Source: Candidatus Kaiserbacteria bacterium (GTDB taxonomy: Bacteria; Patescibacteriota; Minisyncoccia; Phycocordibacterales; UBA918). From it: 64,000 nt of DNA. The notes beneath the pieces were generated by a model, which did no database searches, was not told where the DNA came from, and saw only the letters and a list, made by a program, of their open reading frames with translations. The translations under genes were made by a program, and so were the position numbers. Below are positions 4,243 through 57,863 of the stretch, piece after piece; within the stretch, counting starts at the first letter, position 1; each line of letters opens with the position of its first letter. Location of the stretch: positions 15,654-79,653 of the forward strand of contig CP064968.1 in the NCBI GenBank assembly GCA_016699245.1. Reading direction: 5' to 3'.

Positions 4243-4304
4243 TACCTAGACCTAAACCCAACTGTTTTAAAACGAGCAGGGTTCTATCCTAGAAAGCGGT
4301 GCCA

Positions 4305-8002: not shown

Positions 8003-8075
8003 GCCGTCTTAGCTCAGTTGGTAGAGCAACGGTTTTGTAAACCGTAGGTCCTCGGTTCAAACCCGAGAGACGGCT
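8003..8075 (+). tRNA. tRNA-Thr (anticodon UGU)
   Basis: Folded by hand into a cloverleaf. Acceptor GCCGTCT/AGACGGC; D-arm TAGCTCAGTTGGTAGAGC is identical to the E. coli tRNA-Thr D-arm; anticodon stem ACGGT/ACCGT with loop TTTGTAA (anticodon TGT); T-arm CTCGG-TTCAAAC-CCGAG; discriminator T at 8075. Confidence 0.8.
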
Positions 8076-8077
8076 CA

Positions 8078-12208: not shown

Positions 12209-12258
12209 AAATAGAAAATAGAAGATATAAAATATAAAATAGAAAATAGAAGATATGG
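12209..12258. repeat. Left inverted-repeat arm of the four-helix-bundle gene cassette (ATAGAAAATAGAAGATA units)
   Basis: AAATAGAAAATAGAAGATATAAAATATAAAATAGAAAATAGAAGATATGG immediately after the pheS stop. Its reverse-complement partner is at 12630-12670. Confidence 0.6.
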
Positions 12259-12632
12259 AAAATAAAAAAGAAGTGTCACAGACAGAGAAGGAAGTTTTTA
12301 AGATGAGACTTATTGATTTTTCTGTTTCAACTATGAAACTGTGTCATGATTTTCGCAAAGATCCCACACTTTGGTCGTTGAGTGATCAACTGATTAGAAG
12401 TGCAACTTCGATTGGAGCAAATATTAATGAAGCACAGGGAGCAAATTCTAAAAAAGATTTTGCAAATTATTTTCAAATCGCACTTAAATCAGCTAGAGAA
12501 ACTCGATATTGGATACAAGTAATAGAGCGTTATAACAGTAAGATAAAAGATATCGAGTTCGTACGTAATGAAAATGAAGCGCTCATAAATATCTTGCATG
12601 CTTCATTAAAAACCCTGAGGTCGAAACTGTAA
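12255..12632 (+). CDS. Four-helix-bundle protein (23S rRNA intervening-sequence protein family)
   Basis: SDQLIRSATSIGANINEAQGANSKKDFANYFQIALKSARETRYWIQVI matches the conserved core of the 23S-rRNA-IVS / four-helix-bundle family (GANIAEG...KDF..FL.IA.GS..E). It is inserted between pheS and pheT. Confidence 0.7.
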   Translation: MENKKEVSQTEKEVFKMRLIDFSVSTMKLCHDFRKDPTLWSLSDQLIRSATSIGANINEAQGANSKKDFANYFQIALKSARETRYWIQVIERYNSKIKDIEFVRNENEALINILHASLKTLRSKL

Positions 12633-12670
12633 TATCTTCTATCTTCTATTTTCTATCTTATATTTCTCAT
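12630..12670. repeat. Right inverted-repeat arm of the four-helix-bundle cassette
   Basis: TAATATCTTCTATCTTCTATTTTCTATCTTATATTTCTCAT is the reverse complement of the AGATAGAAAATAGAAGATAGAAGATATT-type units of the left arm. Confidence 0.6.
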
Positions 12671-14625: not shown

Positions 14626-14965
14626 AAGAACTCTTTCTCCGTACCACTACGGCCATCTAAAATCCTTTCTCGGCACGAACTTGAAAAAACCACGCATAAA
14701 CCTAAAACCATCAATCCTTCGGATTGGTGGTTTTAGGTTTTGCTATGCTCGCGCTGTGTGCGCTCCGCAATGCTTTTTTAAAGTTGTGCCTCAACGGATT
14801 TTTACGTATATGCCATTAAGAACTCGTTGACGCACTGCTTTTATGCAGCCTCGCGCAAGGCCCCACAGGCCGAGCGGAGCAAAGACCCAAAACTCACATT
14901 CTACGAATGTGAGTTTTGGGTTTTATGCGTGCTGAAGAAAAGCAGTGCGGAAAAAGAGTTCTGTC
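14626..14965 (+). mobile_element. MITE-like / structured repeat element, copy B
   Basis: Same architecture as copy A: left TIR AGAACTCTTTCTC...AAATCCTTTCTCGGCACGAAC...CACGCATAA, central CTCAACGGATTTTT...CTCGTTGACGCAC...CTCGCGCAAGGCC, right arm GAGCGGAGCAAAG-hairpin-TTTATGCGTGC-TGAAGAAAAGCAGTGCGGAAAAAGAGTTCTGTC. Confidence 0.5.
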
Positions 14966-15114
14966 GCCAACATACAGAGTTCGCGACGAGAGGGAATTTC
15001 CTCCATTTTTCTCGCCAATTCCCACGCATTTTTGCCACAGGGGGAAGGGGGACAAAATGGCTTAAATTTGCTATACTTTTGGCTATTATTGGGTATTTAT
15101 AAATCGACAAAAAC

Positions 15115-17208: not shown

Positions 17209-17233
17209 ATGACGGACATCGGATGTCCGTCAT
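17209..17233. repeat. REP-like 25-bp perfect palindrome ATGACGGACATCGGATGTCCGTCAT (copy 1 of 4)
   Basis: A perfect palindrome 7 bp after the gyrB stop. Identical copies at 39401, 39964 and (one centre mismatch) 40151 surround the RAYT gene. Confidence 0.7.
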
Positions 17234-22906: not shown

Positions 22907-23309
22907 ACAGAACTCTTTCTCTGAACTCTTTTCCTAAAATCCTTTCTCGTCACGAACTTTTGCCCCGCACGCATAAGGCCTGAGAACTAAAAGCAATGCT
23001 TTTAGTTCTCAGGCCTTTGCTCCGCTCGCCCAATGAGGGCTCCGCGAGGCGCTGCAAAAGTTGTAACTCAACGGATTTTAGTAAAAGAACTCGTTGACGT
23101 ACTGCTTTTATTCAGCCTGCCTAGATTCTTCTTATGAGCGAAGCAAATTAGAAAATCTTGGCTGTCGCCACATGCTCTCACAATGCAATGTGGTGACCAG
23201 GACGACCTCAGGGGAGGAGCGGAGCAAAGACCCAAAACCCGCATTCGTAGAATGAGGTTTTGGGTCTTATGCGTGCTGAAGAAAAGCAGTGCGGAAAAAG
23301 AGTTCTGTC
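22907..23309 (+). mobile_element. MITE-like / structured repeat element, copy C
   Basis: Left TIR GACAGAACTCTTTCTC...AAATCCTTTCTCGTCACGAACTTTTGCCCCGCACGCATAAG, right TIR CTTATGCGTGCTGAAGAAAAGCAGTGCGGAAAAAGAGTTCTGTC (its reverse complement). Internal hairpin arms and a central CTCAACGGATTTTAG...CTCGTTGACGTAC block are conserved with copies A, B and D. Confidence 0.5.
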
Positions 23310-23355
23310 TCCAATCTGTGCGATTCTAACCGAAAAAGAATTTTAGAGTTTGCGA

Positions 23356-29654: not shown

Positions 29655-32600
29655 ACGATCTTAGGTTCTTTCTCGACTTTTACGACTGCAACAGATACGC
29701 CAGAGGCAAACATAAAAGCCCTCACCGTTGACTCCGTAAATGGTGTTCTCTACGCAGGGTCAGGAGGTAGTGGCATCATCTACCGCTGTCTCCTTTCTAC
29801 AGGGTGTGATTCCACAGGAGACTTCGTTATTGCGTATGACACTACACATTCAAATATCTCCTCTCTTGCCATTGCGAGTAGTACTCTGTTTGTTAACGGC
29901 TTTACAAGCACAGACAATACTGTTGTGTACCGCTGTCTCCTCTCCACGGGGTGTGACGCCTCGGGTGATTTTACGACTGCATGGACACCATCTTCTCCTC
30001 AATCAAGCCGTACATTAGTTGCAGATTCAGTAAACAACATACTCTACATGGGGGGTCAAGATAATTCAGATCAATTTACAATTTATCGATGTGCCCTTTC
30101 TTCGGGATGTGACTTCCAGACTGACTTCACGACTGCATATGCACCTGCCGCACAGATAGACGTCCATTCCCTCACCATTGCCAGTAGCACGCTCTACGCA
30201 GGCTCGGGTAATGGTGGTAATATTTACCGCTGTCTCCTCTCCACGGGGTGTGATGCTGATGTGGATTTTACCCTTGCATACAACACCACAGAATCGCAGA
30301 TTTATTCCCTCACGAGTGACTCAGCTAATGGTGTTCTGTATGTAGGGACGAGCCCGAACGGCATCATCTACCGATGCCTTCTCACGACAGGTTGTGACGC
30401 CTCGGGTGACTTCACGACGGCAACAGACACCCCACAGACAGATATCTACGCTCTCACCATCTCAAGTAGCACCCTCTACGCAGGCACGGGCGCAAACGGT
30501 GTCATATATCAGTGCCTCACCTCCACAGGCTGTGATTCTACAAATGACTTCACCACCGCAACAGACACTCCCGCTACCACTATAAACGCTCTCGTCATCG
30601 ATTTCGCGAATAGTTCTATTTACGCAGGCTCCGGTGCTACGGGTATCATATACAAAACCAGTATAGGTTCCGCATACCCCATCACCGAACGTGGCACCTG
30701 CTGGGGCACGAGTCCCAACCCCGTCACCAACTGCCTTGCCACCTCAGGGACAAGTACTGGTGCCTTCACCCATGCACGCACTGGCCTTCCCCAGGCTACC
30801 CTCATCTACGCTCGAGCGTATGTTACCTACGCATCAGGCACCGCATACTCAGCCGACGTAAGCACTACCACCCTCGGCGTCGCAGCACCCACCCTCTCCT
30901 CAGGAGCCAACCAAGCCTTTTTCTATGGTCAAGCAACCACCACCATAAGTACCATCACCATTACCGACACTCCTGGCGGACTCGTCACCGCAGCAAACGA
31001 CATCCGCATCCGCATCGCCTCTACCTCCCTCACCATGAAGTGGGACACCACCGACACCACCGCCACCTTTGGCGGTACCGCCTCGGCCAAAGTATCAAAC
31101 CCTGTCTCCTACGAAAACAACGGCACCACACTTGTGATTCCTGTTGACACCAACTTTGGAACAGGGGACACCCTCACCATAGACGGACTTTCTTTTTCAC
31201 AGTTCCTTGGGGTGAGTACCGCCACCATCGGGCTCAACATATACCTCGCGGGGGCAAGTGACGCCGTGAGTGATGATGCCGATGATAAGACGATGAGTAT
31301 TAGTTCCACCACCCCTACCGTTACCACCCCCACTACCACTGCTATAGGCCTTAATAGTGCAACTCTCGGCGCTACCATTACGAGTGACGGTGGGGGAACA
31401 CTGAGTGCGCGCGGTACCTGCTGGGGCACCAGCGCATCCCCCGTCACCAACTGTACCGCAGAAGGCGGTACGGGAACGGGTGTCTTTACGCAGGCACGCA
31501 CCGGTATGGCGACGGGTACTCTCTACTACTATCGTGGATATGCGACAAATGCCTCGGGTACGACATATTCGGCAGATGGTACCTTTAGCACCAATGCTGT
31601 TCCCGTACTCACTACTCCCACTGCTACTGCCGTGGGTTCAAGTACCGCTACCCTCGGTGCTACCCTTGTTTCCACAGGTACCAACACTATTAATGCTCGC
31701 GGTACCTGCTGGGACACGAATTCGTCTCCCACCATCAACTGTCTTGCAGAAGGTGGTACGGGAACAGGTGCTTTCACGCAGGCACGTACAGGTCTGACAG
31801 CGGGCACACTGTACTACTATCGTGGGTATACGACATATACTGACGGTGCAAGTGTCACCCGTACCGCATATTCAGCAGATGGCACATTTGTAAGTTCAAC
31901 CACCCCTACACTCACCACCCCCACCGTTACTGCCGTCAGTTTTACAACCGCAACATTCGGCGCCAATATCACGAGTGACGGCGGAGCACCACTGAGTGCC
32001 CGTGGTACCTGCTGGGGCACCAGTGCGTCCCCGGTGACCAACTGTCTTGCAGAAGGCGGTACGGGAACGGGTGTCTTTACGCAGGCACGCACCGGTCTCC
32101 CCCAGGGCACACTCATTTACGCCCGCGCATACGCAACAAACGCATACGGTACTTCATACTCAGCCGATATAAGTACTACCACCAGCATCTCCACGAGTGA
32201 TCTCATCATCTCCGGTACCCTCTATAGCGACGAAGGGGTCACCACGATAAACGGAGGGAAGACCATTGCTCTCGCTATCGGCACCACCACCCCCTCAGTC
32301 CACACCACTACCTCCAATGGTTCTGGCGTATGGACTGCTACCATCCCCACCGGCCACACCATCGGCACCTCTACCCCTATCCTCGCTTGGGTAGATAATG
32401 ACGGCACCACCCGTGCCGCACTCCTCACGAAGGCAACATCCACCTCTAATATCTCTGGCCTTAGTCTCTATAAAGATAGAGTGATTGTGTCGCATGAGGC
32501 AACAAGTGGTACCTCAACGACACTCACTGACATGTCCTTCTATGACAACGACAACGACAGTGACATTCAATACAATGCGACAACAACAAGCGCAGGGCTT

Positions 32601-35600
32601 GTATTAAACGCTGGCAACGAACTCCATATCCAAACAGGGAAGTCCTTCACTCCCCTAGGCGCCGTCACCATACAGGGGAACGCCGGCACCGGCACCGATG
32701 GTTCACTTCACCTTCCTGCAAGTAGCATCTACACCGCAGGAGGCACCACCACCCTTGCCGGCAATTTCACCGCATCATCCTCCGCAACCTTTACCCCTGG
32801 CACCCACACCCTCACCTTTAATGCAACGACCACCGGAAAGAGTATTGATGTACCACTCGCTACCCTTGGTAACACCACCTTCAATGGAGCAGGTGGTGCA
32901 TGGGCGTTTGCATCAGCAGCCACCACCTCAGCCCTTACCATCACCGCCGGCACCCTAACTGCTCCCGCCACCAGTCTTACCATCCTCGGTAACTACCAGA
33001 ACAGTGGCACCTTCACTCACAACAACGCCACGGTCACCATCGCCTCCACCACCGCCGCACAGGGTATCATGGGTACTGCCACCGGTACGTCGGCCTTCAG
33101 TACGCTCCGCATCATCGGTGCTACCACCACTGCTCCAACATCAGGCCTCGTCGGTAAATGGATGTTTGAGGAGGGAAGTGGCACGACGGTGCGGGATGCG
33201 AGTGGGGGTGGGAATACGGGGACGCTCAATGGAACTCCTTCTTGGATTTCTGAGAATAGGGGTAAGGCAATTTCGCTCAATGGAACAACAGATTATGTAG
33301 CTATTCCTAACTTGATACAGACTCATCGTAGTGACATTACTATCGCCACGTGGTTCAAGACGACCACAACGGGTGTAATTGCGGGATATCAAGCTGGTAT
33401 GGTGGGAAGTGGTCCCAGTAGTTATGTTCCCGCTATCTATATCGGTACCGATAATAAAATTTACGCTCAACTATGGGATGGTGCGACACACCCAATCACA
33501 ACTTCCGGAACGTATACCGACGGTGCTTGGCACCATGTTGCGCTCGCAGTCTCAGGCGGTAATAGCCAATCCCTCTACGTTGACGGTTCGTTTGTGGGGA
33601 TTCTCAGTAATGCAATTACTGATTTTGGTGCAACCTATTCGCAGTTTGGTGCTGGGTACACCACAGGGTGGACCAACGCGTCTGGTGGGTTGACTTATTT
33701 TGCTGGTTCTCTTGATGATAATCGAATCTACAACCGCGCGCTCACCGCGAACGAAATCAGCGACCTCTATAACGAACGTCCAAAAGTCTTCTCACAAAAC
33801 GCCTCTACCACCAACCTCATCATTGAATCCGGTGTCGTGTCCGCACCACCATCTCTGAGTATCGCCGGCGACTACCAGAACGCAGGCGCCTTCCTCGCGA
33901 ACGCCGGCACCACCACCTTCAACGGCACCACCACCTTTAGTGGCGTGAGCGCCCAGACCCTCGGTGGCACCATGACGGGCGCAAGCGCCTTTGGAAACGT
34001 GGAGTTTACCGGCGGAGGACTCAAGTCTTTTGCGACGACGACTACGAATGCAAGTACATCTAATTTTATGGTGGATGCCGGCGCGACGGTCGTCGCGCCG
34101 GAAAACCTCTCCGTCTCTGGTCAATACACCAACAACGGCACGTCCTCAAACCCAGGAGGGAAGGTGTGGACCAGCCGCACCGCCGCCGCCTACAACATCT
34201 GGCAATCCGTCACCTACGGCAATGGTCTCTTTGTGGCGGTGTCTGGTACTGGCGCTGGCACAATCAACGACCGCGTCATGACTTCCCCTGACGGAATCAC
34301 CTGGACCCCCCGCACCGCCGCTACCAATAACTACTGGTACTCCGTCACCTACGGCAACGGCCTCTTTGTGGCAGTGGCTGGTTCCGGCACCATAAGCGAC
34401 AAAGTCATGACTTCCCCTGACGGCATCACCTGGACCCCTCGCACCGCCGCCGCTGACAACACCTGGCGCTCCGTCACCTACGGCAATGGGGTCTTCGTGG
34501 CGGTGTCTGGTACTGGTGCCGGCACCATCAACGACCGCGTCATGACTTCCCCTGACGGCATCACCTGGACCCCTCGCACCGCCGCCGCCAACAACTCTTG
34601 GTGGTCCGTCACCTACGGCAATGGCCTCTTTGTGGCGGTGGCTGAGACTGGCACCATCAACGACCGCGTCATGACCTCCCCCGACGGCATCAACTGGACT
34701 GCCCAGACCGCCGCTGCCAACAACAACTGGGTCTCCGTCACCTACGGCAATGGCCTCTTTGTGGCAGTGGCTTTTTCTGGCACCATCAATGACCGCGTCA
34801 TGACCAGCCCCGACGGCATCACCTGGACCCCCCGCACCGTTGTCGCCAACAACACCTGGGTCTCCGTCACCTACGGCAATGGCCTCTTTGTGGCGGTGTC
34901 TGGTACTGGAGCTGGTACCGTGAACAACCGCGTCATGACCTCCCCCGACGGCATCAACTGGACCGCCCAGACCGCCGCCGCCAATAACGAATGGGTCTCC
35001 GTCACCTACGGCAATGGCCTCTTTGTGGCGGTGGCGTACTCTGGTTTCAATCGCGTCATGACAAGCGCGGTCGGTACCACCACCTTTAGTGGCGTGAGCG
35101 CCCAAACCCTCAATGGCACCATGACCGGCGCGAGCGCCTTCGGCAACGTCGCCTTTACCAACACCAGCGCTACCACCACCTTTGCAAGTAACGCGAGCAC
35201 CTCTAATTTCACCACTGCATCAAACACAATCGTCGTTGCTCCATCCAGCCTTTCTCTTTCCGGAGACTACACAAACAACGGCCGTTTCGTCGCCGGCACC
35301 GGCACCACCACCTTTAATGGCAATACGACACAGACCGCCACCGGCACCATGACGGGTACGAGTGCGTTTAGCAACCTCACTATTACGAACAGTGTCGCCT
35401 CCACCACCTTTGTTACTCCACTGACGGTAAGTGGCAAATTCACTGCCACGACCCCCGGCACTATCATCATCCTCAGTTCACAGGGCACCACCACCTTCGC
35501 TACTGCAGGAATCATTGGTAGCAGTACAGAGAGCATCACTCTCCGCGCCACCACCCCTGGCACGCAAGCACCCCTTGATATAGAGGGCACATACACTCTT

Positions 35601-38600
35601 TCGTATATAAACGTCAAAGATTCCAATGCCTGTGATAACGCCATTGCCCTCAGTGGTACCGGTCTCACCGACAGTGGCAATAACACGTGTTGGACTTTTG
35701 CCTCAGGTTCAGTGATTGTACTTTCCGGTATCCTCTATAGCGACGAAGGGACAACACCTATTACCGCGCCAAAGACATTGGGTATCATGGTGGGTACATC
35801 GACACTGAGTCTCCATAGTACGACCTCTGCAGCATCAGGTGCTTGGAGTTTTACCGTACCTGCAGGGCATACCATTGTTCAGGGGACTCCTATTCTCGTC
35901 TGGGTAGACAATGACGGTTCTACGCGGGCGTCGCTCGTCACCAAAGCAGATTCATCATCCGCCGATATATCAGGACTTAATCTGTATCAAAATAGGGTGA
36001 TTGTCTCGCATGAGGGTGCTGAAGCCATCACGCTCTTAGCTATGACTCGGTATAATAATAGTGATGATGCTGATATTCAGTTTGAAGCGGTTGATGCTGA
36101 GGGATATATAGGACAAATCTTTTCAGGGAACAAATTGTATATCAATGCAGGGAAAACATTTTCTCCTGATGGAGAGTTAACCATAGGTGCCAACGCCAGT
36201 TCCTCAAGTGTCGATGGTGCCCTCCACATAGCGAGTGGTGCTACATATAAGCAAATGATGCCAAATAATAATTGGACCTATATCGGAGGTTCACTCACTG
36301 CATCATCTACGGCAACTATCATAAATAATGGTACATTTCAATTCACTGCGTCTACCACGGGGAAGAGTATTAACGCCACTCAGCCACTTGGTAAGGTCAC
36401 TTTCGCAAACACCGCGAGCATGTCCTTTGCCACGAGTGCCACGACAACCAACCTCACTATCAACGCAGGTGCGTCGGTTGTTGCACCCGCTAGCACGCTC
36501 ACGATTCTTGGTGACTATACCAACAACGGCACCTTTACCCACAATGGGGGTACGATACTCTTCGCAAGCACCACACAGGCACAGTTTTTGCGTGGTACGC
36601 TCTCGGGTACCTCTGCCTTTGGTACACTTAGTTCTGTGGGTAATACGACCACCTCTCCATCTGGACTCATAGGGAAGTGGAACCTCGATGAAGGATCGGG
36701 GACAGAAGCATACGATTCATCGGGAAATGGTAATACCGGTACGCTCACCAATGGTCCAACCTGGAAAGCAGGTAAAGTCGGCCAGGCCGTTGATCTTGGT
36801 GGAGATGATGATTATATCAATGTGGGGTCTCCAGCGTCGCTCGATGATGTCACCCAAAAAACCATCACCGCATGGATAAATCCGGTTACCCTTGGTGATA
36901 GTGATTATGGGCGAATCGCTGATAAAGATGCAGGCACAGCGACTGGGTGGTTGTTTTATGTGTCGAACGGAGACAATGTGAGTAGTTTGCGCTTTGGACA
37001 TTATTTTGCAGGAGGTCTTGGTTTTTGGAATACTGGAAACAACACTATTACTACCGGAGGGAACACATGGCAACATGTCGCGGTGACCTACGACAACAGT
37101 TCGGCAAGCAATGATCCAGTCTTTTACATAAACGGTGTATTGAGTCCTCTTGCGTTTGACACTAATAATTCGGGTGCAGCGAATAGTGATGCGGCACACA
37201 ACCTCTGGTTCGGAGACCGTGCGGGGAATGATCGTTCTTTCAATGGAGACATGGACGATATCCGTATGTACAATCGAATTCTTACCGCCGGAGAAATCGC
37301 TACGATATACAATGAACGTCCAAAGTTTATCAATGCGAATGCTTCGACCACCAATCTCTCGATAGACTCGGGCGTGGTAGCCCTGTCATCAACCAGCCTC
37401 TCTATTGCGGGTAACTACACCAACTCGGGCACCCTCGCAGTAACGGGCACCACGACCTTTAACGGCAATACGACACAGACCGCCACCGGCACCATGACCG
37501 GCTCAAGTGCATTTAAGAACGTGGAAATACTCAATACGTCTGCTCCTACTATCTTCGGCGCACCCTTTGCCGTCACCGGCCACTTCAAGGCAACGTCGCC
37601 AAGTATTAGTATGAAGTTTGCAGAAAACGCTACCACATCCCTCAATACCGCTACCCTGTATGGTACCTCAGGCAACAAGGTACAACTTCGCTCAACGACT
37701 GAGGGGACACGTTTTGGTATTGAAATAAGTGGTGCATATGATATTTCGTACGTTGATGTGAAGGATAGTAGTGGCTCCACAACGCTCGGCAATATCACCG
37801 CCACCACATCAGTGGATTCAGGTAATAATAATAGATGGACTTTTATCGCTGATCCCGTACCATCCCTCTCCTCCGCCTCCAACCAGTCCTTCTACTACTC
37901 TGAACCCACCACCACGATAAGTACCCTGACCATCACCGACACCCCCGGCGGACTTGTCACCGCCACAAACGACATCCGCATCCGCATCGCCTCTACCTCT
38001 CTCACCATGAAGTGGGACACCACCGACACCACCGCCACCTTTGGCGGTACCGCCTCGGGCAAAGTATCAAACCCCGTCTCATACGAAAACAACGGCACGA
38101 CACTCGTAATACCTGTTTCGAATGACTTTAGCGCCGCAGACACCCTCACCGTAGACGGGCTTTCTTTCACCCAGTTCCTCGGGGTGAGTACCGCTACCAC
38201 TGGACTCAACATATACCTCGGTGGCGCAAGTGACGCCGTGAGTGACGATGCAGACGATAAGACGATGAGCATCAGTGGACTCGGAACCCTCTTGAATCAC
38301 ACGAGTGGCCAAGTGAGTGACAATATCAATTCCACCACAGAGACAGGCATCCCACTCTTTGCCTTCAATCTCTCTTCAGTGGGTGAAAACAGCACCATTT
38401 CAAACCTCACCCTCCGTATCACGGGAGCCAATGGAGTGAGTACCGGTGACCTCTCAAACTTCGCACTCTACCGTGACAACAACAACAGCAAGACATTCGA
38501 CGCAGGAGATACCGCCGTGGGCGGTTCCCCAAGTGTTACCCTCACGGGTGACAACGGCACCGTGACCTTTAGCACACCATTCAGTGCAACCTCCACCGCA

Positions 38601-39377
38601 CGCAACTATGTACTCGTAGGCTCCGTAGACAATGTACGCGTGACCGAGGGCTTCACACTCAACCTGAGTGCCATCGACGTAGCACTCACCGGAGACACCA
38701 CCGGTCTCACCACGCTCCTCAGCACGCTCTCTGGTGTACAACACATGAGAGGGGGCGGTGGTGGCAGTAGTGGTGGCGGAGTACACGCCGGTATTGGGGG
38801 TGCACCTCCAGCGGGTGACGGAATACGTGGCGGTGGCGGAGGTGGTGGAGGAGGTGGCGTCGACCCCGACAGTGGCACCCCGATAGGCAATGAACCCGGC
38901 TTCAATGCACCAAGTGGGCAGGGTAGCCCACAGGGTGGATGGACGAATGGTACGAATGTATACACCTCAAATGGTGTGTACACGACGACGAGTGGCAATG
39001 GCTCGCGCCATACCTTCACCACCTTTGGATTTGATGTACCACTCAACAACACCATAGTGGGTGTTGAGGTAAAGGTAGAGGCATCGGGCAGTACGGCAGC
39101 AGGGACTATCTCAATAGGGCTCTCCTGGAATAACGGCTCAACACTCACCTCACTGAAGACCACGAGCACCCTCGGACTCACCGACACGGTGTTCGTTCTC
39201 GGAGGATCATCGGACAATTGGGGTCGCACCTGGACTCCCCTCGAATTCGCAAACGGTAGTTTTGCAATTGAAATTATTGGCAATACCTCTGCAAACACCC
39301 TCTCTGTGGATGCCATACAAGCAAAGGTATACCACCAAGCCACGGGCGGTGGCGGTGGTGGTGGCGGGGCGATTTAG
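29655..39377 (+). CDS. Giant secreted repeat protein, 3' segment (about 3240 aa) with two LamG/concanavalin-like domains, propeller-like repeats and a Gly-rich tail
   Basis: The frame of the 29925 (GTG) ORF is homologous and open back to 29655, directly after the G-tract. Contents: YRCLLSTGCD repeats x8; FN3-like modules x6; LamG_3-like domains at 33140-33780 and 36660-37330 (LVGKWMFEEGSGTT..D.SG.GNTGTL...TDY..I...I...ITIA.W.K....W.HVA...........LYV.G........IYNR.LTA.EI..LYNE); eight tandem 40-aa VWTSRTAA..N.W.SVTYGNGLFVAV.G.G...DRVMTSPDGI.WT repeats (34150-35050); a ~3.5-kb internal duplication; Gly-rich C-terminus. Stop TAG at 39375. Confidence 0.8.
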   Translation, partial: TILGSFSTFTTATDTPEANIKALTVDSVNGVLYAGSGGSGIIYRCLLSTGCDSTGDFVIAYDTTHSNISSLAIASSTLFVNGFTSTDNTVVYRCLLSTGCDASGDFTTAWTPSSPQSSRTLVADSVNNILYMGGQDNSDQFTIYRCALSSGCDFQTDFTTAYAPAAQIDVHSLTIASSTLYAGSGNGGNIYRCLLSTGCDADVDFTLAYNTTESQIYSLTSDSANGVLYVGTSPNGIIYRCLLTTGCDASGDFTTATDTPQTDIYALTISSSTLYAGTGANGVIYQCLTSTGCDSTNDFTTATDTPATTINALVIDFANSSIYAGSGATGIIYKTSIGSAYPITERGTCWGTSPNPVTNCLATSGTSTGAFTHARTGLPQATLIYARAYVTYASGTAYSADVSTTTLGVAAPTLSSGANQAFFYGQATTTISTITITDTPGGLVTAANDIRIRIASTSLTMKWDTTDTTATFGGTASAKVSNPVSYENNGTTLVIPVDTNFGTGDTLTIDGLSFSQFLGVSTATIGLNIYLAGASDAVSDDADDKTMSISSTTPTVTTPTTTAIGLNSATLGATITSDGGGTLSARGTCWGTSASPVTNCTAEGGTGTGVFTQARTGMATGTLYYYRGYATNASGTTYSADGTFSTNAVPVLTTPTATAVGSSTATLGATLVSTGTNTINARGTCWDTNSSPTINCLAEGGTGTGAFTQARTGLTAGTLYYYRGYTTYTDGASVTRTAYSADGTFVSSTTPTLTTPTVTAVSFTTATFGANITSDGGAPLSARGTCWGTSASPVTNCLAEGGTGTGVFTQARTGLPQGTLIYARAYATNAYGTSYSADISTTTSISTSDLIISGTLYSDEGVTTINGGKTIALAIGTTTPSVHTTTSNGSGVWTATIPTGHTIGTSTPILAWVDNDGTTRAALLTKATSTSNISGLSLYKDRVIVSHEATSGTSTTLTDMSFYDNDNDSDIQYNATTTSAGLVLNAGNELHIQTGKSFTPLGAVTIQGNAGTGTDGSLHLPASSIYTAGGTTTLAGNFTASSSATFTPGTHTLTFNATTTGKSIDVPLATLGNTTFNGAGGAWAFASAATTSALTITAGTLTAPATSLTILGNYQNSGTFTHNNATVTIASTTAAQGIMGTATGTSAFSTLRIIGATTTAPTSGLVGKWMFEEGSGTTVRDASGGGNTGTLNGTPSWISENRGKAISLNGTTDYVAIPNLIQTHRSDITIATWFKTTTTGVIAGYQAGMVGSGPSSYVPAIYIGTDNKIYAQLWDGATHPITTSGTYTDGAWHHVALAVSGGNSQSLYVDGSFVGILSNAITDFGATYSQFGAGYTTGWTNASGGLTYFAGSLDDNRIYNRALTANEISDLYNERPKVFSQNASTTNLIIESGVVSAPPSLSIAGDYQNAGAFLANAGTTTFNGTTTFSGVSAQTLGGTMTGASAFGNVEFTGGGLKSFATTTTNASTSNFMVDAGATVVAPENLSVSGQYTNNGTSSNPGGKVWTSRTAAAYNIWQSVTYGNGLFVAVSGTGAGTINDRVMTSPDGITWTPRTAATNNYWYSVTYGNGLFVAVAGSGTISDKVMTSPDGITWTPRTAAADNTWRSVTYGNGVFVAVSGTGAGTINDRVMTSPDGITWTPRTAAANNSWWSVTYGNGLFVAVAETGTINDRVMTSPDGINWTAQTAAANNNWVSVTYGNGLFVAVAFSGTINDRVMTSPDGITWTPRTVVANNTWVSVTYGNGLFVAVSGTGAGTVNNRVMTSPDGINWTAQTAAANNEWVSVTYGNGLFVAVAYSGFNRVMTSAVGTTTFSGVSAQTLNGTMTGASAFGNVAFTNTSATTTFASNASTSNFTTASNTIVVAPSSLSLSGDYTNNGRFVAGTGTTTFNGNTTQTATGTMTGTSAFSNLTITNSVASTTFVTPLTVSGKFTATTPGTIIILSSQGTTTFATAGIIGSSTESITLRATTPGTQAPLDIEGTYTLSYINVKDSNACDNAIALSGTGLTDSGNNTCWTFASGSVIVLSGILYSDEGTTPITAPKTLGIMVGTSTLSLHSTTSAASGAWSFTVPAGHTIVQGTPILVWVDNDGSTRASLVTKADSSSADISGLNLYQNRVIVSHEGAEAITLLAMTRYNNSDDADIQFEAVDAEGYIGQIFSGNKLYINAGKTFSPDGELTIGANASSSSVDGALHIASGATYKQMMPNNNWTYIGGSLTASSTATIINNGTFQFTASTTGKSINATQPLGKVTFANTASMSFATSATTTNLTINAGASVVAPASTLTILGDYTNNGTFTHNGGTILFASTTQAQFLRGTLSGTSAFGTLSSVGNTTTSPSGLIGKWNLDEGSGTEAYDSSGNGNTGTLTNGPTWKAGKVGQAVDLGGDDDYINVGSPASLDDVTQKTITAWINPVTLGDSDYGRIADKDAGTATGWLFYVSNGDNVSSLRFGHYFAGGLGFWNTGNNTITTGGNTWQHVAVTYDNSSASNDPVFYINGVLSPLAFDTNNSGAANSDAAHNLWFGDRAGNDRSFNGDMDDIRMYNRILTAGEIATIYNERPKFINANASTTNLSIDSGVVALSSTSLSIAGNYTNSGTLAVTGTTTFNGNTTQTATGTMTGSSAFKNVEILNTSAPTIFGAPFAVTGHFKATSPSISMKFAENATTSLNTATLYGTSGNKVQLRSTTEGTRFGIEISGAYDISYVDVKDSSGSTTLGNITATTSVDSGNNNRWTFIADPVPSLSSASNQSFYYSEPTTTISTLTITDTPGGLVTATNDIRIRIASTSLTMKWDTTDTTATFGGTASGKVSNPVSYENNGTTLVIPVSNDFSAADTLTVDGLSFTQFLGVSTATTGLNIYLGGASDAVSDDADDKTMSISGLGTLLNHTSGQVSDNINSTTETGIPLFAFNLSSVGENSTISNLTLRITGANGVSTGDLSNFALYRDNNNSKTFDAGDTAVGGSPSVTLTGDNGTVTFSTPFSATSTARNYVLVGSVDNVRVTEGFTLNLSAIDVALTGDTTGLTTLLSTLSGVQHMRGGGGGSSGGGVHAGIGGAPPAGDGIRGGGGGGGGGGVDPDSGTPIGNEPGFNAPSGQGSPQGGWTNGTNVYTSNGVYTTTSGNGSRHTFTTFGFDVPLNNTIVGVEVKVEASGSTAAGTISIGLSWNNGSTLTSLKTTSTLGLTDTVFVLGGSSDNWGRTWTPLEFANGSFAIEIIGNTSANTLSVDAIQAKVYHQATGGGGGGGGAI

Positions 39378-39400
39378 AAAAGAGAAATAAAATTGATAAA

Positions 39401-39435
39401 ATGACGGACATCGGATGTCCGTCATTGTCCGTCAT
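39401..39435. repeat. REP-like palindrome copy 2 (plus 10-bp partial tandem duplication TGTCCGTCAT)
   Basis: ATGACGGACATCGGATGTCCGTCAT-TGTCCGTCAT, 24 bp after the giant-gene stop and downstream of the RAYT gene end. Confidence 0.7.
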
Positions 39436-39463
39436 TTTTGTATGCTTCACACGCGCACACGCA

Positions 39464-40138
39464 TTACTCAAGGGTTACACCATCAAGGTGAAGTATGTTA
39501 AATTTTTTGAGGTGCGACTGAAATGCTTTTGTATAGCCTGCTGAGCCTCCAAAATATTTGAGAAAAAATGTTCGGTCAGTAACTGAACCAAAATTACTTT
39601 TGCCACTGTAGTCGAGATGACTACTCCATTTGTATTTTGAAAGTAATTCCTCGACGTGTTGTGCAGAAGGAATTTCTCCCTCGCGCCATTTTGGTGTGGT
39701 GAGGTCAAGTGGATTGAGGTGAATATAAAAGGGGAGATACATGAAGTGTGCATCTGAGGTGATACGTATGGATTTGTACTTACCTTGAAAGAGTCCACCA
39801 GAGCGTTCATATCGCTCATTAAAATACTTTGCGTACCCCATATTTATCTTTTTCATAAAGAGAGACACCCCACCTTCAACGAGAGGGGAGAGCATGAGGT
39901 GGTAGTGGTTTGGCATGAGACAAAAGAAGTGTATCTGCACCAGCCGTTCACCTTCACCTGCTAATGACGGACATCGGATGTCCGTCATTTTTGTGTTTCG
40001 TCGATGGTTGGTGTCGCTTCTTCCTTGAACGTTAAACGTATATAAATCATGAATAAATCTGGCATAATCCCTTGAATCAAGGAATATCGTACGCTTCTCA
40101 ACTCCTCTGTTGAGTACGTGAAAAAACTCTGTATGCAT
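39464..40138 (-). mobile_element. REP-associated tyrosine transposase (RAYT; IS200/IS605-like Y1 HuH transposase) gene
   Basis: 224 aa with FFHVLNRGVEKRTIF, the HuH motif (LMPNHYHLML), the catalytic-Tyr region (GLFQGKYKSIRI) and YIHLNP...WSSH, all matching the RayT/COG1943 pattern. The gene is flanked on both sides by the 25-bp palindrome and carries one copy in-frame inside the ORF. Confidence 0.75.
39964..39988. repeat. REP-like palindrome copy 3, located inside the RAYT coding sequence
   Basis: A perfect ATGACGGACATCGGATGTCCGTCAT copy. On the minus strand it is translated in-frame as ..KMTDIRCPSL.. within a ~25-aa segment absent from typical RAYT homologues (between the FL..L helix and the HuH motif). 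Confidence 0.65.
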
Positions 40139-40150
40139 ACTGATATTCTA

Positions 40151-40186
40151 ACACACATGACGGACATCCGATGTCCGTCATGTGTG
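40151..40186. repeat. REP-like palindrome copy 4 (extended: ACACACATGACGGACATCCGATGTCCGTCATGTGTGT)
   Basis: An extended 37-bp palindrome with one central mismatch, lying exactly between the dnaE stop (40187-40189) and the RAYT start (40138). Confidence 0.65.
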
Positions 40187-43100
40187 TTACTCTTGGGGGA
40201 TGGGGGTGTTCGGGTCGAGGGCTTTTATGCGGTCTATGACAACGGTGGGCTCTTCGTTTCTCATTGAGAGTTTGCCTGAGACTGCTACACAGGAGCCTAC
40301 GACGAATAGGTCGTGGTGCGTTTTGTATGTCTCGGGGAAAGCAACAAGTTCGATAGTCTCGCTTCCGTCTCCAACCAAAATAAAACCCATCTTGTCACCT
40401 TTCTTCGTGAGAATTTCGTGGATGCTTTCCACCATACCTGCGGTCACTATGGGTATGCCATTGCGGGTCTCCTTCTTAATGACACCAATTTTTGGCCGTT
40501 TTGCGAGTTCATCTTTGTATGCATCAAGGGGGTGCCCCGAGACATACACACCGAGTAATTCTTTTTCCCATACGAGTTTCTCTGCTTTACCTGCAGGCTC
40601 TGCTGGCTCCAAGATGAGTGCGTGGATGTCCGCAGTACCAAACGCGCCAAAGAGGGATTCTTGGGAAGATTCTTTGTGACTACTATGTTCCTTGTGATAG
40701 GTAAGCATGGTTTCCACATTGTGAAGAAGCATCCCGCGCTCATGAAAGCGGTCGAATGAGCCCGACATAATAAGTGCCTCAAGTGATTTTTTGTTGAGGT
40801 TTTTGCTTGTGACGCGGGTAAGGAAATCTTGGAGGGATGTGTAGGGGCCATGTTCTTTGCGCTCGTCAATGATGGATTCGGCGATGCCTTCGCCGAAGTT
40901 TTTAATGGTTGTTAGTCCAAAACGTATGCGTGCTTTTTTGTCACGTTGAACAGGCACTACCGAGAAGGGCCCAAAACTTTCGTTGATGTCGGGTGGAAGC
41001 ACTTCGATACCCATGCGCACACACTCTGCGATAATCTCAGATATTTTCTCGGTATCACCCGCATCGGCGGTGAGTACTGCTGACATGTATTCTTCGGGAT
41101 AATTAGCCTTCATGTATGCAGTTTGATAGGCGACACGTCCATAACTTGCTGCATGGGCTTTGTTGAAGCCGTACGCGGCAAATGGCTCAATGAGTTTCCA
41201 CAGTTTGTCTGCAAGCGATGCACTCAATTTTCCATATTCCACAAAGCCTTTGAGGAGCTTTTCTTTCTCCGCCTCCATTACCGCAGGAATCTTTTTACCC
41301 ATCGCTTTACGAAGCATGTCAGCCTCGAGCCACGAGTAGCCCGCGAGTTCTCGTGCAATCATCATGACGTCGTCCTGGTAGGTAATCACCCCGTAGGAAC
41401 GGTCGAGGATTTTTTCCAATCGTGGGTCAAGATAGGAAACGAGATTTGCATTATGCTTCCGCTCAACATACTGCGGAATAGATTCCATCGGCCCAGGGCG
41501 GTAGAGTGCCACCATCGCATTGATGTCGTGAATGGTGGAAGGACGGAGTTGCTTGAGGAATGCAGTCATGCCTGTTCCGTTTAACTGGAATAGTCCCATA
41601 GTCTCACCACGCGCGAGCATCTCGAAGGTTTTGGTGTCAGTGACGGGAATGTTTTCAATATCTACTTCTATGTCACGAATTTTCTCGACGCGCTTCACTG
41701 CGTCTGCAAGTATGGAAAGATTTTTGATACCGAGAAAGTCGAACTTGAGGAGGCCGACACCATCTTCACCTACAGAATGCATCTCGTACTGGGTGATGAG
41801 TTTGCCACTTTTTGGGTCGGGCTGTACGGGTACAAATTCGGTGAGTGGGGCGGGCGCAATCACCACTCCTGCAGCATGCACACCGACATGGCGCACCCGC
41901 CCCTCAATTTGTTTTGCCAAATCAATCACCTCTTTTGTGTCGGGGTCTTTTGCATAGAGGGCTTTGAGATCGGGCTCGATTTCCATCGCATTTTCAATAG
42001 TCATGGGGAAGCCTTGGCTACCCATAGGGATGAGTTTTGCAATACGGTCGCCGATGGCGTACGGGTGGCCAAGGGCACGAGCCACGTCACGTACGGCAGC
42101 GCGTGCCATCATCGTTCCAAAGGTACCAATCTGTGCGACGTTTTCTTCGCCATACTTTTCACGCGCATACGCAATGATTTCGTCTCGTCTGTTGTCGGCG
42201 TAGTCCATGTCGATATCAGGTGCAGAAGGGCGCTCGGGGTTGAGGAAACGTTCAAAGGGAAGATTGTACTCAAGGGGATTTACATTCGTAATCCCGAGCA
42301 CGTACGTGGTGAGCGAGCCCGCCACCGATCCTCGAATGGTGGTGAGGATTTTGCGTTCGCGTGCCTCACGAAGGAGGTCCCCCACAACGAGAAAGTACTT
42401 TGCGTAGCCTTTCATTTTAATAACACCGAGCTCGTAGTCGAGGCGTTCCATAACAGCGTTGTCCTCACGTGAAAGCCCGCGCCACGCAATGCCCGCATAT
42501 GCCATGTCATGGAGTTCGACGTCAGGCTCTTTGCCGCTTTCGATTTTATAGTCAGGGAAATACCATGTCGCACCCGGAGTCATCGTGACGTTACACGCTT
42601 CGGCGATTGTAATGGTGTTTGCGAGTGCCTCCTTTTCCGCCTCACGTACAAAAAGTTCTTGTGCACGTTCACTCGAAATAAACGAGAAGTTTGGCGCAAG
42701 TTCACCTTCCTTGTCCTGTGTCTCTACCACACCACCGCTTTGAATCTTTATCATCGTCTCGCGCGCGAGGTAGTCACGTTGCTCAAGATAGTAGACGTCG
42801 TGTGCAGCGACGAGAGGTGTGTTAGTCCTCTCGGCAAGCGCAAGAATACTTCTTTGGAGGGCTTCGTGGCCGTCTATCTCGGGATGATGGGTAATTTCTA
42901 AATAGCAATCGTCACCAAATATGCTTTTGTACCAATCAAGCGAGGCTTCAGCCTGCTCGATGAAATTGTCCTTGAGTGAAAGTACGGGCTCGCCGCTAAA
43001 TGAGGGAATGATGCAGATGAGGTCTTTGTGAAATTCTTCGATGAGTGCATGGTCGATGCGGGGTTTGTAGTAGAAACCGTTGACGTAGGATTCGGTCACT

Positions 43101-44570: not shown

Positions 44571-45470
44571 ATGGCAAATCGGCACCTTTCAAGATCAATC
44601 GTTCTTCAATCACTCTTTGAGTGGGATTTAAATAGTATAGAAAAAAGCGCAATGGTGGAGACCCTCATGCGCAACGTCGAAGAATTTGCACCCAACAAGT
44701 CCGATACGCCATTCATGGAGAAGCTTCTTGATGGTGTACTCCAAAAGCAATCTGAGTTAGACCTCATCATCGAGAAGGCTGCACCCGAATGGCCTATCGA
44801 TAGAATCGCTCCTGTAGATCGCAATATTCTCCGTCTCGGTCTCTATGAACTGCTTTTCTCAGACCGCAATGAAGTACCCGCAAAAGTCGCTATCAATGAA
44901 GCCATTGAACTTGCGAAGCAGTTTGGTGGAGACAATTCAAGCCGTTTTGTAAACGGTGTACTTGGTGCCGTATATAAAGAAATCGGGGAGCCAGGCAAGG
45001 AAGAAAGTTCCAAGATTAAAAAGAAACGCGAAATTCCTTTTGAGCAGATGGACATTGAGCGTCTCGCAGGGGCTGTCGTGTATGCAATTCACGAGGGTAC
45101 GATGTACCTGGCCCTCGTCCACGATATCTTTGGTCATTGGACGCTCTCAAAGGGGAAACTTGTTGAAGGTGAAGAAATTGAAGCAGGCACAGCGCGTTCA
45201 ATTAAAGACGAAATAGGTCTCACCGTTGAACTTGAGACCGAACTTGGTAAAAATGAATATGTTGCGTCGCATCCTGAAAAGGGCAAGGTGCGCAAGCAAG
45301 TCGTATACTACCTCGCACGTGCGCCATACGAAAATCTCGCCCTCGAAGAAAAGGGAGGACTCGATGCGGCACAGTGGTTTAAGGTTGCCGATATTCTCGA
45401 ACTTAACTTTTATGAAGATATTTTGCCCATTGTTACCAAGGCAGTCACGGTACTCGTGAGTAGGAAGTAG
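44571..45470 (+). CDS. nusB: NusB transcription antitermination factor fused to a C-terminal NUDIX hydrolase domain
   Basis: NusB core (SRSIVLQSLFEWDL...PIDRIAPVDRNILRLGLYELLF...PAKVAINEAIELAKQFGGDNSSRFVNGVL) followed by a Nudix fold with a Nudix-box-like segment (GKLVEGEEIEAGTARSIKDEIGL). Confidence 0.65.
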   Translation: MANRHLSRSIVLQSLFEWDLNSIEKSAMVETLMRNVEEFAPNKSDTPFMEKLLDGVLQKQSELDLIIEKAAPEWPIDRIAPVDRNILRLGLYELLFSDRNEVPAKVAINEAIELAKQFGGDNSSRFVNGVLGAVYKEIGEPGKEESSKIKKKREIPFEQMDIERLAGAVVYAIHEGTMYLALVHDIFGHWTLSKGKLVEGEEIEAGTARSIKDEIGLTVELETELGKNEYVASHPEKGKVRKQVVYYLARAPYENLALEEKGGLDAAQWFKVADILELNFYEDILPIVTKAVTVLVSRK

Positions 45471-45545
45471 GATGTTGAATAGAAAATAGAAAATAGAAGA
45501 TAGAAGATAGAAAATAGAAAATAGTGAATAGAAAATAGAGCCTGA
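45471..45545. repeat. Tandem heptamer array (ATAGAAA / ATAGAAG units, about 10 copies)
   Basis: GATGTTGAATAGAAAATAGAAAATAGAAGATAGAAGATAGAAAATAGAAAATAGTGAATAGAAAATAGAG. The same units make up the inverted repeats flanking the four-helix-bundle cassette and the spacer after each tRNA-derived unit. Confidence 0.6.
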
Positions 45546-45603
45546 AATACTCTCGATATTACCTGCTATTCCCAATTTTACATATTTCTGCTACCCTACG
45601 CCC

Positions 45604-54559: not shown

Positions 54560-54950
<391 letters not shown>

Positions 54951-57067: not shown

Positions 57068-57562
57068 CCTCAAAACTCTTATTCGATACCACAACAAGAA
57101 CCACAAATCCTTTCTCGGCACGAACTTTTGCAGGGCACGCATAAGGCATGAAAACTAAAAGCAATGCTTTTAGTTTCCAGGCCTTTGCTCCGCTCCTCCC
57201 CTGAGCGACTTACAGTCGCTGTTCAGGTTGTATGATATTTTTCGTAAACTCAAAATATCGACAACCTCTTGCGAAAGTCTCCCAGACTTTCTCACGTCCG
57301 CGAGGCCCTGCAAAAGTTGTGCCTCAACGAATTTGTTCACTTTGTAAGCTTAGAGCAAAACTCGTTGAGGTACCACTTTAGATATGCACCACAGAGAGTA
57401 CATCCATTTTTATAGTCGCCGTTCGGCTCCTTAAAAATTAGGTGCCTCGCGCAAGGCCACACAGGCCGAGCGGAGCAAAGCCCCGAAAATAAAATCCAAA
57501 GGATTTGTTTTTCGGGGCTTATGCGTGCAGATATAAAGTGGTGCCGAAAAAGAGTTTTGACA
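57068..57562 (+). mobile_element. MITE-like / structured repeat element, copy D (largest copy, 495 bp)
   Basis: Left TIR CCTCAAAACTCTTATTCGATACCAC...AACCACAAATCCTTTCTCGGCACGAACTTTTGCAGGGCACGCATAAG. The right TIR CTTATGCGTGCAGATATAAAGTGGTGCCGAAAAAGAGTTTTGACA is the reverse complement of copy A's left end. Internal arms and the central CCTCAACGA...TCGTTGAGG hairpin are conserved. Confidence 0.5.
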
Positions 57563-57863
57563 CCGACATTCCCAAAAGAGTGGGGAATACCAAAATCCAC
57601 AGGTAACTGTTGACCTTTTTGAGCGGGTCTGGTATTATTCCGGCACGCAATAGATCTCGGATGAGTCATGGATGTGCGATGTTTGGAGGGGGGTCATATA
57701 CAGCGCTGTATATGAAAGAGCACCAGGGAACCTAAGTTCCGTAATCACGACCACGTGATGTACACATTACTCGCACAGTAAAAACGACATTAGAACAACG
57801 CACTTTGGGTGCGGTTATTTTGTTGTTATGCCGTTTTTGCTTTTATACATAACACGTATACGT

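Follow-up and report, generated by a model that had tools for sequence, protein, structure and literature searches.

A Y1/HUH transposase-like gene bracketed by, and containing, copies of one hairpin in a Candidatus Kaiserbacteria genome

Results

Organization of the locus

We analyzed a 64,000-nucleotide (nt) stretch of DNA from Candidatus Kaiserbacteria bacterium (NCBI GenBank assembly GCA_016699245.1, contig CP064968.1, positions 15,654 to 79,653 of the forward strand; hereafter "the window," numbered from its first letter). In this window, a minus-strand gene for a Y1/HUH transposase-like protein is flanked on both sides by copies of a hairpin and carries a third copy in frame within its open reading frame (ORF). 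The gene located upstream of the Y1 ORF is dnaE, and its downstream neighbor is a convergent gene coding for a 3150-aa repeat protein. A fourth, solo copy of the hairpin is found elsewhere in the window, behind gyrB. This hairpin-plus-Y1-nuclease unit is syntenic in its closest relatives and part of a large Patescibacteria clade of the IS200/RAYT type (RAYT, transposase associated with repetitive extragenic palindromic [REP] sequences). The features of the unit are as follows, with hairpins and repeats listed without a strand:

39464 to 40138, minus strand: Y1/HUH transposase-like gene, intact, 224 aa (start codon 40136-40138, stop codon 39464-39466)
40145 to 40150, minus strand: -10-like hexamer TAGAAT, 6 nt upstream of the ATG, read from the sequence
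40150 to 40188: upstream hairpin, 19-bp stem, core 25-mer at 40157-40181 (-21 kcal/mol, z of about -8 to -9)
39963 to 39989: internal in-frame hairpin, 27 nt, 13-bp stem, coding for K50-L59 (KMTDIRCPSL)
39400 to 39426: downstream hairpin, 27 nt, oriented like the internal copy
39426 to 39435: second copy (TGTCCGTCAT), in tandem, of the final 10 nt of the hairpin arm at 39416-39425
17209 to 17233: solo 25-mer copy, 6 nt past the gyrB stop codon

The hairpins share the 25-mer ATGACGGACATC-S-GATGTCCGTCAT (= ATGACGGACATCGGATGTCCGTCAT), which is present as an exact match on the plus strand at 17209-17233, 39401-39425, and 39964-39988 and as the reverse complement at 40157-40181. It was found 0 times in 100 dinucleotide-preserving shuffles of the window. 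All four sites had been named in an earlier reading of the DNA (here called the original prediction) and were recovered. There, the 25-mer was described as a perfect palindrome; its two 12-nt arms do pair, but a single unpaired base is left in the center. Because this base is G on the plus strand in three copies and C in the upstream copy, each copy has an orientation, and the upstream copy is inverted. If the flanking A/T pair is included, the internal and downstream copies become 27-nt hairpins with 13-bp stems (39963-39989 and 39400-39426). The extended upstream variant likewise exists, but as a palindrome of 39 nt with a 19-bp stem at 40150-40188 and not as one of 37 bp at 40151-40186. The outermost pairs of this palindrome extend into the dnaE stop codon (40187-40189) at one end and into the -10 hexamer at the other. 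Predicted energies of the single-stranded DNA hairpins ranged from -12 to -21 kcal/mol, with z values of -4.6 to -9.3 relative to shuffles.

In the frame of the Y1 ORF, the internal copy reads ..NTKMTDIRCPSLAG.., whereas the downstream hairpin is situated 37 nt past the stop codon of the Y1 gene and 22 nt past that of the convergent 3150-aa gene. The short duplicate at 39426-39435 permits an alternative pairing register, as computed for the alternative fold. Half-arm duplication was considered as a general footprint of the hairpin, yet extra half-arms or second hairpins adjoin only 7/112 flank hairpins in relatives under a strict test, and the feature was therefore treated as minor. At the solo site, the ORF ending 6 nt before position 17209 is that of gyrB, and a separate G+C-rich, terminator-like hairpin follows the copy at ∼17270. 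Searches against Rfam at the gathering threshold gave no match at the hairpins, the sole match in the window being a tRNA.

The encoded protein

The predicted minus-strand ORF of 224 aa was confirmed together with all motifs that had been quoted for it. Pfam PF01797 (Y1_Tnp) was matched with 30 bits (cutoff, 23), covering residues 67-140 only, and a C-terminal WSSH domain is also present. The HUH motif (H78-Y79-H80) and the catalytic tyrosine Y138 (within YIHLNP) were invariant in alignments of 30 and 85 sequences, and all residues invariant in the family are kept in the window protein. Judged by its sequence, the Y1-like gene is thus intact and not degenerate. The curated RAYT model NCBIfam NF047646 (REP_Tyr_transpos, equivalog) was missed, with 35.5 bits against a cutoff of 80. 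More than 3400 homologs were retrieved, nearly all 221-235 aa long and from sources named Parcubacteria or Patescibacteria. Counted as clusters at 50% identity, the relatives numbered 242 at an E value of ≤1e-30 and 5003 at ≤1e-10.

An AlphaFold model built with 85 homologs reached a predicted local distance difference test score (pLDDT) of 86.9 and a predicted template modeling score (pTM) of 0.85. In this model, Y138 sits in a helix (residues 129-140). Confidence is high except at residues 43-62, the sole segment with a pLDDT of <50 and a predicted disordered surface loop. Helix 22-34 precedes this loop and strand 67-74 comes after it; the loop separates helix A from the strands bearing the HUH motif. 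It is in this part of the Y1-fold model that the hairpin-encoded peptide falls. Foldseek comparison with the PDB returned Y1 transposases as all of its 26 best matches (IS608, RAYT 4er8, ISDra2, IS200, and Sulfolobus). These matches, with IS608 TnpA, the E. coli RAYT-REP complex 4er8, and ISDra2 TnpA at the top, had a probability of 1.00 and target-normalized TM-scores of 0.53-0.65, the highest being that of 4er8. At the sequence level, a single-sequence search of PDB sequences with the 224-aa protein found nothing, no match to 4er8 was obtained at E values up to 1, and ISDra2 TnpA was matched weakly by profile (E, ∼1e-3). Overall, the protein is a Y1/HUH enzyme of its own deep subfamily.

As an aside on gene boundaries, one homolog (P0109) is annotated with an N-terminal extension, ..KSLDIRCPEIYY.., which is the upstream hairpin translated in frame. 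Gene callers thus sometimes place these starts too early.

The internal hairpin across the family

To follow the internal copy beyond the window, 80 homologous loci were fetched from GTDB Patescibacteria genomes. About 40 of the 80 have a perfect stem of at least 7 bp at ORF nt 145-170. The sequences of these stems are unrelated between loci, while the hairpin of such a locus is repeated on either side of its gene, at 2-77 nt upstream and a few nucleotides downstream. In a test blind to hairpins, strings of at least 12 nt shared between segments were counted in 75 loci. The upstream and downstream flanks shared such strings in 65/75 loci, and the internal segment shared them with the upstream flank in 44/75 and with the downstream flank in 37/75. 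A control segment of the ORF shared them with the two flanks in 0/75 and 1/75 loci. Bracketing of the gene by its cognate palindrome, as had been claimed for the copies at 40157 and 39401, thus extends to most relatives.

We then aligned the DNA of 55 loci with the protein alignment as the sole anchor. In most of these loci the internal hairpin was found at the same codon, the first base of which formed the hairpin center. Paired cells amounted to 75.3%, compared to 55.2% in shuffles (a value reached by 0/500) and 29-41% with slid partners. Double-sided changes were counted 145 times versus 58 in shuffles, and the covariation score was 0.448 versus 0.149. Individual stem positions show up to four Watson-Crick pair types.

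Homologs encode DIGCP, DIRCP, or DVRRP at the palindrome, with I-to-V changes accompanied by C-to-R changes, as expected from compensatory change in a DNA stem. Where the hairpin differs, the peptide varies freely (YSDLRSPNI, NKAVGQPYF, YIVTGLRYI, and CLEVEPLNS), with pairing retained. The conserved entity is therefore a nucleic-acid hairpin rather than a protein motif. The internal copy is also fitted to coding: where flank copies read AATCTA-core-TAGATT, the internal one has TATATT (Tyr-Ile), by which an in-frame TAG stop codon is avoided.

Conversely, one could suppose that a motif D-I/V-G/R-C/R-P is conserved for the sake of the protein and that the palindrome merely follows from coding. 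D53 is indeed ≥90% conserved in the closest 85 homologs, and "DIGCP"-like strings recur. However, the free variation of the peptide under retained pairing and the multiple pair types per stem position speak against this notion, as does a codon choice that always keeps pairing. The same DNA is moreover found outside the ORF, the segment is predicted to be disordered, and one clade is without it. We regard this explanation as hardly credible.

Loci with an internal hairpin are scattered across the whole neighbor-joining tree, and the internal hairpin is an old, conserved family trait. Within the limits of this approximate tree, its simplest history is an old gain followed by few losses. The original prediction had correctly placed the in-frame copy in an extra segment, here a loop absent from typical Y1 proteins, and explained it either by the REP having entered the gene of its own transposase with the frame unbroken, which we read as a private and recent event, or by degeneracy of the element. 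The position of the copy in this extra segment, and the restriction of the Pfam match to residues 67-140, would suit such an event. Homolog alignment, however, revealed the extra segment and its hairpin to be native to a large subfamily, which is the outcome that the prediction itself had set against its proposal. The same position, frame, and cognate identity occur in most of the 55 loci across the family tree, orthologs at 92% and 80% identity also hold the internal hairpin, and the ORF is intact with its invariant residues present. A recent private insertion or degeneration is therefore extremely improbable.

Concerted change of the three copies

Three loci (L089, L090, and L091) are orthologous to and syntenic with the window. 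In L089 (82% nt identity over 39127-40422), the 25-nt cores of all three hairpins are the same as in the window, except for the central loop base of the internal copy. L090 and L091 are more distant (75-77% nt identity; their contigs include the 3' end of dnaE), and in both, all three copies have changed from GAC-GGACATC to TAT-GGACATC, with compensating changes in the 3' arm. So many matched changes are not independent, which indicates that sequence passes between the copies or that each is re-made from a common source.

Pairing is, in addition, restored within single copies by some process, as seen in loci L048, L051, and L079, the last of which has a downstream copy that looks chimeric. Arm-to-arm repair in an extruded hairpin would have this effect.

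Two further observations concern hairpin variants and contig ends. The closest GTDB relative of the window, L001, has a second hairpin variant, AATGAGTGACATCGGATGTCACTCATT, beside the main one, AATGATGGACATC... (10695-10721 and 16856-16883). The two differ by two compensatory pairs and hence represent two subfamilies in one genome. The short contigs of L090 and L091 both terminate exactly in the downstream hairpin (1398-1424 and 983-1011, respectively). Short-read assembly seems to fail at perfect palindromes this long, and the many homologs on 1- to 3-kb contigs may be explained in this way.

Layout of the unit

In relatives, the upstream hairpin and the ATG are separated by a median of 18 nt, most often by 13-14 nt. 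A TATAAT-like hexamer (at least 5/6 matches) ends 4-10 nt (mode, 6) before the start codon in 40/79 loci, compared to ∼3 expected at random positions and 1-7 at other offsets. As read from the sequence, this placement implies a leaderless mRNA, with the hairpin putatively occupying the spacer/-35 region. A generic two-hexamer scan found no sigma-70 site at the start of the Y1 gene, as expected if the hairpin replaces the -35 region.

On the other side of the gene, the downstream hairpin starts at a median of 1 nt after the stop codon, and in ∼20 loci the stop codon is formed by the first three bases of the hairpin. A general role of the downstream hairpin as a canonical intrinsic terminator was rejected, since a T-rich tail is found at only 7/58 downstream hairpins. 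In the window, the internal copy scores as a terminator on the antisense (plus) strand only.

With the internal copy as reference, the nearest copy upstream has the opposite orientation in 30/42 loci, and the one downstream has the same orientation in 21/34. The window copies show this commonest arrangement. Although hairpins stand at both ends of the gene, the aligned flanks that we inspected displayed no conserved junction motif. The 5' flanks of the window and metagenome copies are A/T rich (..TAAA, ..CTA, and ..CACAC). None is GTAG or GTGG, so that the GT/AG-type 5' tetranucleotide proposed as a check on the hairpin guide was not found beside them. Many relatives have outer stems of the form AATCTA...TAGATT. 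Decayed internal copies were also examined for a strand signal in their G-T versus A-C mismatches, but which strand, sense or antisense, carried the G-T mismatch varied between loci, and no conclusion was drawn from these mixed signals.

Dispersal of the hairpin and mobility of the gene

A scan of metagenome contigs detected the exact 25-mer on 8 contigs, none of which has a homologous Y1 gene or other window sequence. Some of these copies lie just 3' of genes, and three lie in frame inside ORFs, namely, those of BacA (L082), MurC (L084), and MnmA (L088). Here, the 27-mer, equivalent to 9 codons, encodes the peptide NDGH[P/R]MSV[I/M]. The MnmA copy falls within a 19-residue insertion relative to solved MnmA structures (9hlv), and the MurC case is less clear.

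For a hairpin census, perfect hairpins with a stem of at least 10 bp and a loop of 1 or 3 nt were collected from the window and 1.2 Mb of loci. We obtained 223 such hairpins, versus 0 in shuffles; 127 were beside Y1 genes and 96 elsewhere. Of the latter, 46 are located in stop-free frames of at least 150 codons. Hairpin types specific to one paralog recur elsewhere in the same genome. Examples are an L063-type hairpin (assembly JAUXUB) at L007:2646 and an L053-type hairpin (assembly JBBUAA) at L046:2101, both far from their cognate paralogs and the second inside a 708-codon open frame.

Several genomes carry 2-3 Y1 copies. Such paralogs are only 52-63% identical, with none reaching 95%, and are thus no recent gene duplicates; each has its own hairpin type. 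No near-identical gene copies were found among the 80 loci, and orthologous positions are retained in close relatives. These data derive from metagenome-assembled genomes, in which identical repeats may be collapsed and active copies hidden. No Y1 relatives were found on viral contigs. Gene neighborhood is not conserved across the 80 loci. Adjacency to dnaE was considered as the sign of a fixed host locus and discarded, because it occurs in only 1 other locus, in a different orientation. This behavior (divergent copies, synteny, and none on viral contigs) is that described for RAYTs and not for insertion sequences (PMC5581495).

Comparison with known systems

The original prediction had called the protein a RAYT. 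Its assignment as a Y1 homolog of the IS200/RAYT type was borne out, whereas the narrower identity was not, given the score against the NCBIfam RAYT model (35.5 versus 80 bits), the missing GTAG/GTGG head, and the low-copy dispersal. With the RAYT/REPtron system (E. coli YafM, 4er8), the unit shares the Y1/HUH fold with its HUH motif and single tyrosine and a gene bracketed by its cognate palindrome, the flank copies here being most often mutually inverted. Solo palindromes elsewhere in the genome, the lack of recent gene duplicates, and synteny in close relatives are also common to both (PMC5581495), as is a separate hairpin family for each same-genome paralog, described for RAYT groups (PMC5581495).

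In other respects the two differ. Only here does the ORF itself contain a third cognate copy, the codon position of which is conserved. Its hairpins, long perfect palindromes with loops of 1-3 nt, have no GTAG/GTGG head, whereas in REPs a guide tetranucleotide of this type by definition precedes the hairpin foot on the 5' side (PMC6006769, PMC3733652). Copy number is low, the hairpins in the flanks merge with the -10 box and the stop codon, and the protein is ∼60 aa longer, with a WSSH domain at its C terminus and no significant sequence match to 4er8. For RAYTs, a flanking 16-mer overrepresented genome-wide in extragenic space has been used as a criterion (PMC5581495). With the curated protein model and the GTAG/GTGG head both lacking here, two defining RAYT/REP tests gave negative results, and strict RAYT membership is unsupported. 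In short, the unit resembles a REP/RAYT system in behavior and a minimal IS200 in appearance.

The IS200, IS608, and ISDra2 elements have the same fold and are similarly compact, with a single small gene between subterminal hairpins. The hairpin just upstream of the putative promoter recalls the terminator hairpin at the left end of IS200. In contrast to these elements, the unit gives no sign of multiple identical copies or of transposition as a whole, and no conserved target tetranucleotide was found. We know of no insertion sequence of the IS200/IS605 family with a copy of its end hairpin inside tnpA.

A third parallel is provided by intragenic REPs and Rickettsia palindromic elements, short palindromes that occur in frame in housekeeping genes and place their peptide in tolerant loops, as in BacA, MurC, and MnmA here. 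REPs inside genes and REP termini supplying stop codons have been listed (PMC3733652). What differs is that one of the host genes here is that of the putative mobilizing enzyme itself, with an insertion conserved across a deep family and coevolving with the flanks. In the open-access papers and preprints searched, we found no report of this Patescibacteria family or of a cognate REP within a RAYT-like gene.

Discussion

We consider it probable that the locus is a compact, vertically inherited REP/RAYT-like unit, the mobile hairpin of which anciently entered the gene of its own enzyme and has been kept homogenized there. If the protein acts analogously to IS608 TnpA and E. coli TnpA-REP, it would recognize the hairpin when extruded in single-stranded DNA and would cut and rejoin the strand beside it. 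Such an activity could, at low frequency, carry the ∼27-nt hairpin, equal to 9 codons, to other positions, either behind the 3' end of a gene or within a gene in frame, and one ancient event of this kind would have brought a copy into the enzyme's own gene, in a tolerant loop. Exchange from hairpin to hairpin, by excision and reinsertion or by strand swapping through the enzyme, would keep the copies perfect and alike, with arm-templated repair within each hairpin adding to homogenization. If the analogy holds, the most likely reason for keeping the internal copy is that it provides a third cis site, by which enzyme and substrate are linked. In that role it would be an autoregulatory binding site, a "seed" copy, or both. 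It may, on the other hand, be a neutral passenger sustained by homogenization.

Several observations weigh against this interpretation. A clade of ∼18 loci (∼215 aa) and a small second clade are without the internal hairpin and have kept those in the flanks, and one or two mismatches mark the internal copy of several loci in which the flank copies are perfect. Such loss and decay suggest that the internal copy can be dispensed with and perhaps serves no function. In L048 and L051, the internal hairpin is perfect, yet compensatory changes set it apart from the upstream hairpin, a pattern that simple homogenization from the flanks does not explain. The orientation of the flank copies relative to the internal one is not fixed (30/42 inverted upstream and 21/34 direct downstream), and inspection of the aligned flanks gave no conserved target or guide tetranucleotide beside the copies. 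Binding and cutting of the hairpin by the window protein are putative and proposed by analogy with IS608 TnpA and TnpA-REP. Dispersal is low, with 1 solo copy in the 64-kb window and 12 cognate far copies in ∼812 kb of the relatives' loci. Extrapolated from this partial sequence, these sparse far copies correspond to roughly 15 copies in a genome of ∼1 Mb, which is within the range of RAYT groups 1 and 4 (12-14 copies) and far below that of groups 2 and 3 (57-140 copies) (PMC5581495). Retention of the internal copy at one codon across a deep family with very small genomes nevertheless argues that it is not simply neutral.

A more far-reaching proposal, which we hold to be rather unlikely, makes the internal hairpin a working cis site. 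The Y1 enzyme would reversibly excise and reinsert the 27-nt hairpin in frame in its own gene, which would then act as the master or "seed" copy renewing the hairpin family of the genome. Enzyme specificity and substrate would be forced to coevolve, and the same activity would seed in-frame peptide insertions in the housekeeping genes of such reduced genomes. In its boldest form, the hairpin-encoded loop would itself touch the hairpin.

Alternatively, the unit might be an active IS200-like insertion sequence, with the flank hairpins as its ends, the internal hairpin as an alternative end, and the solo hairpins as footprints of end-to-end recombination that deleted the gene. The layout is extremely compact, running from hairpin, -10 box, and ATG to a second hairpin at or over the stop codon. 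The lack of a conserved neighborhood across the 80 loci and the presence of 2-3 copies in several genomes would also suit such an element, and by sequence profile and fold, IS608 and ISDra2 TnpA match the protein about as well as RAYT does. However, same-genome copies are only 52-63% identical and differ in hairpin type, so that recent duplicates are lacking. Synteny is preserved in relatives at 75-82% nt identity, none of the copies is on a viral contig, and a whole insertion sequence at the sites of the in-frame solo hairpins would have destroyed the housekeeping genes in question. We therefore think this alternative unlikely.

Somewhat different in kind is the idea that the three hairpins are RNA or transcription elements (an insulator or terminator upstream, an mRNA 3' stabilizer downstream, and a pause or RNase site within the ORF), selected through expression and independently of DNA cutting. 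The upstream hairpin is placed like the read-through terminator of IS200 and also ends the dnaE gene, and solo copies are often just 3' of genes. In E. coli, REPs are reported to act as 3' untranslated region elements (10.64898/2026.03.23.713779), which would fit this idea. Yet a leaderless mRNA, if made, excludes the upstream hairpin from the transcript of the gene, a T-rich tail is present at only 7/58 downstream hairpins, and mismatches in the internal copy show no strand preference. An RNA function gives no account of an identical sequence at three sites, of its concerted change, or of its difference from paralog to paralog. We judge this explanation to be improbable.

Under the REP/RAYT-like interpretation, the family touches on two open questions: how REPs and RAYT enzymes stay matched, and whether RAYTs really move REPs. 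It constitutes a natural experiment of hundreds of diverged enzyme/hairpin pairs, each with a substrate copy in the enzyme gene at a fixed codon, so that each hairpin change leaves a record to be set against the copies in the flanks and those dispersed elsewhere. Sequence data thereby allow direct measurement of concerted evolution, specificity switching, and hairpin turnover, all of which are open to tests with small oligonucleotides and a 224-aa protein. In the gene-dense, tiny genomes of Patescibacteria, hairpins that land in frame inside essential genes are also a source of variation in protein loops. At a practical level, the hairpins are a source of assembly breaks, as at the contig ends of L090 and L091, and they explain the recurrent "DIGCP"-like pseudomotif in thousands of proteins annotated only as "transposase."

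Other features of the window

The convergent neighbor of the Y1 gene encodes a highly repetitive 3150-aa protein (29925-39377, plus strand) and is preceded by near-identical tandem units of ∼2 kb (26889, 28890, and 30892). In L001, giant repeat-protein genes likewise occur beside the Y1 gene, duplicated at a spacing of 6.16 kb, and hairpins mark the 3' end of these genes.

A second, unrelated repeat family is present at 4300-4630, 14825-14973, 22937-23317, and 57095-57569, with at least 5 modules of ∼130-150 nt in both orientations. The conserved outer parts of the modules read ..CGTTGACGCACAACTTTTGCAGCGCCTCGCGCAAGGCC..GAGCGGAGCAAA.. and ..TTATGCGTGC..CAAAAGTT..TGCC.., and the core is a long, locus-specific perfect hairpin with a 17- to 21-bp stem. 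The family has no match in Rfam and could be a miniature inverted-repeat transposable element or a structured RNA.

A tRNA at 8003-8075 leads into a 171-nt tandem duplication (8058-8228 and 8229-8399; 99% identity), and the hairpin TTAAAACAGTGCCCCGCACTGTTTTAA is present in both duplicates. At 54600-54770, runs of 13 to >40 G or C residues alternate with A-runs (C15, G42, G35, C8, G19..), which looks like a sequencing or assembly artifact rather than biology. Finally, A/T-rich tracts with a 7-nt period (AATAGAAAATAGAAGATA...) occur in both orientations at 12189-12292, 12632-12665, and 45464-45553.

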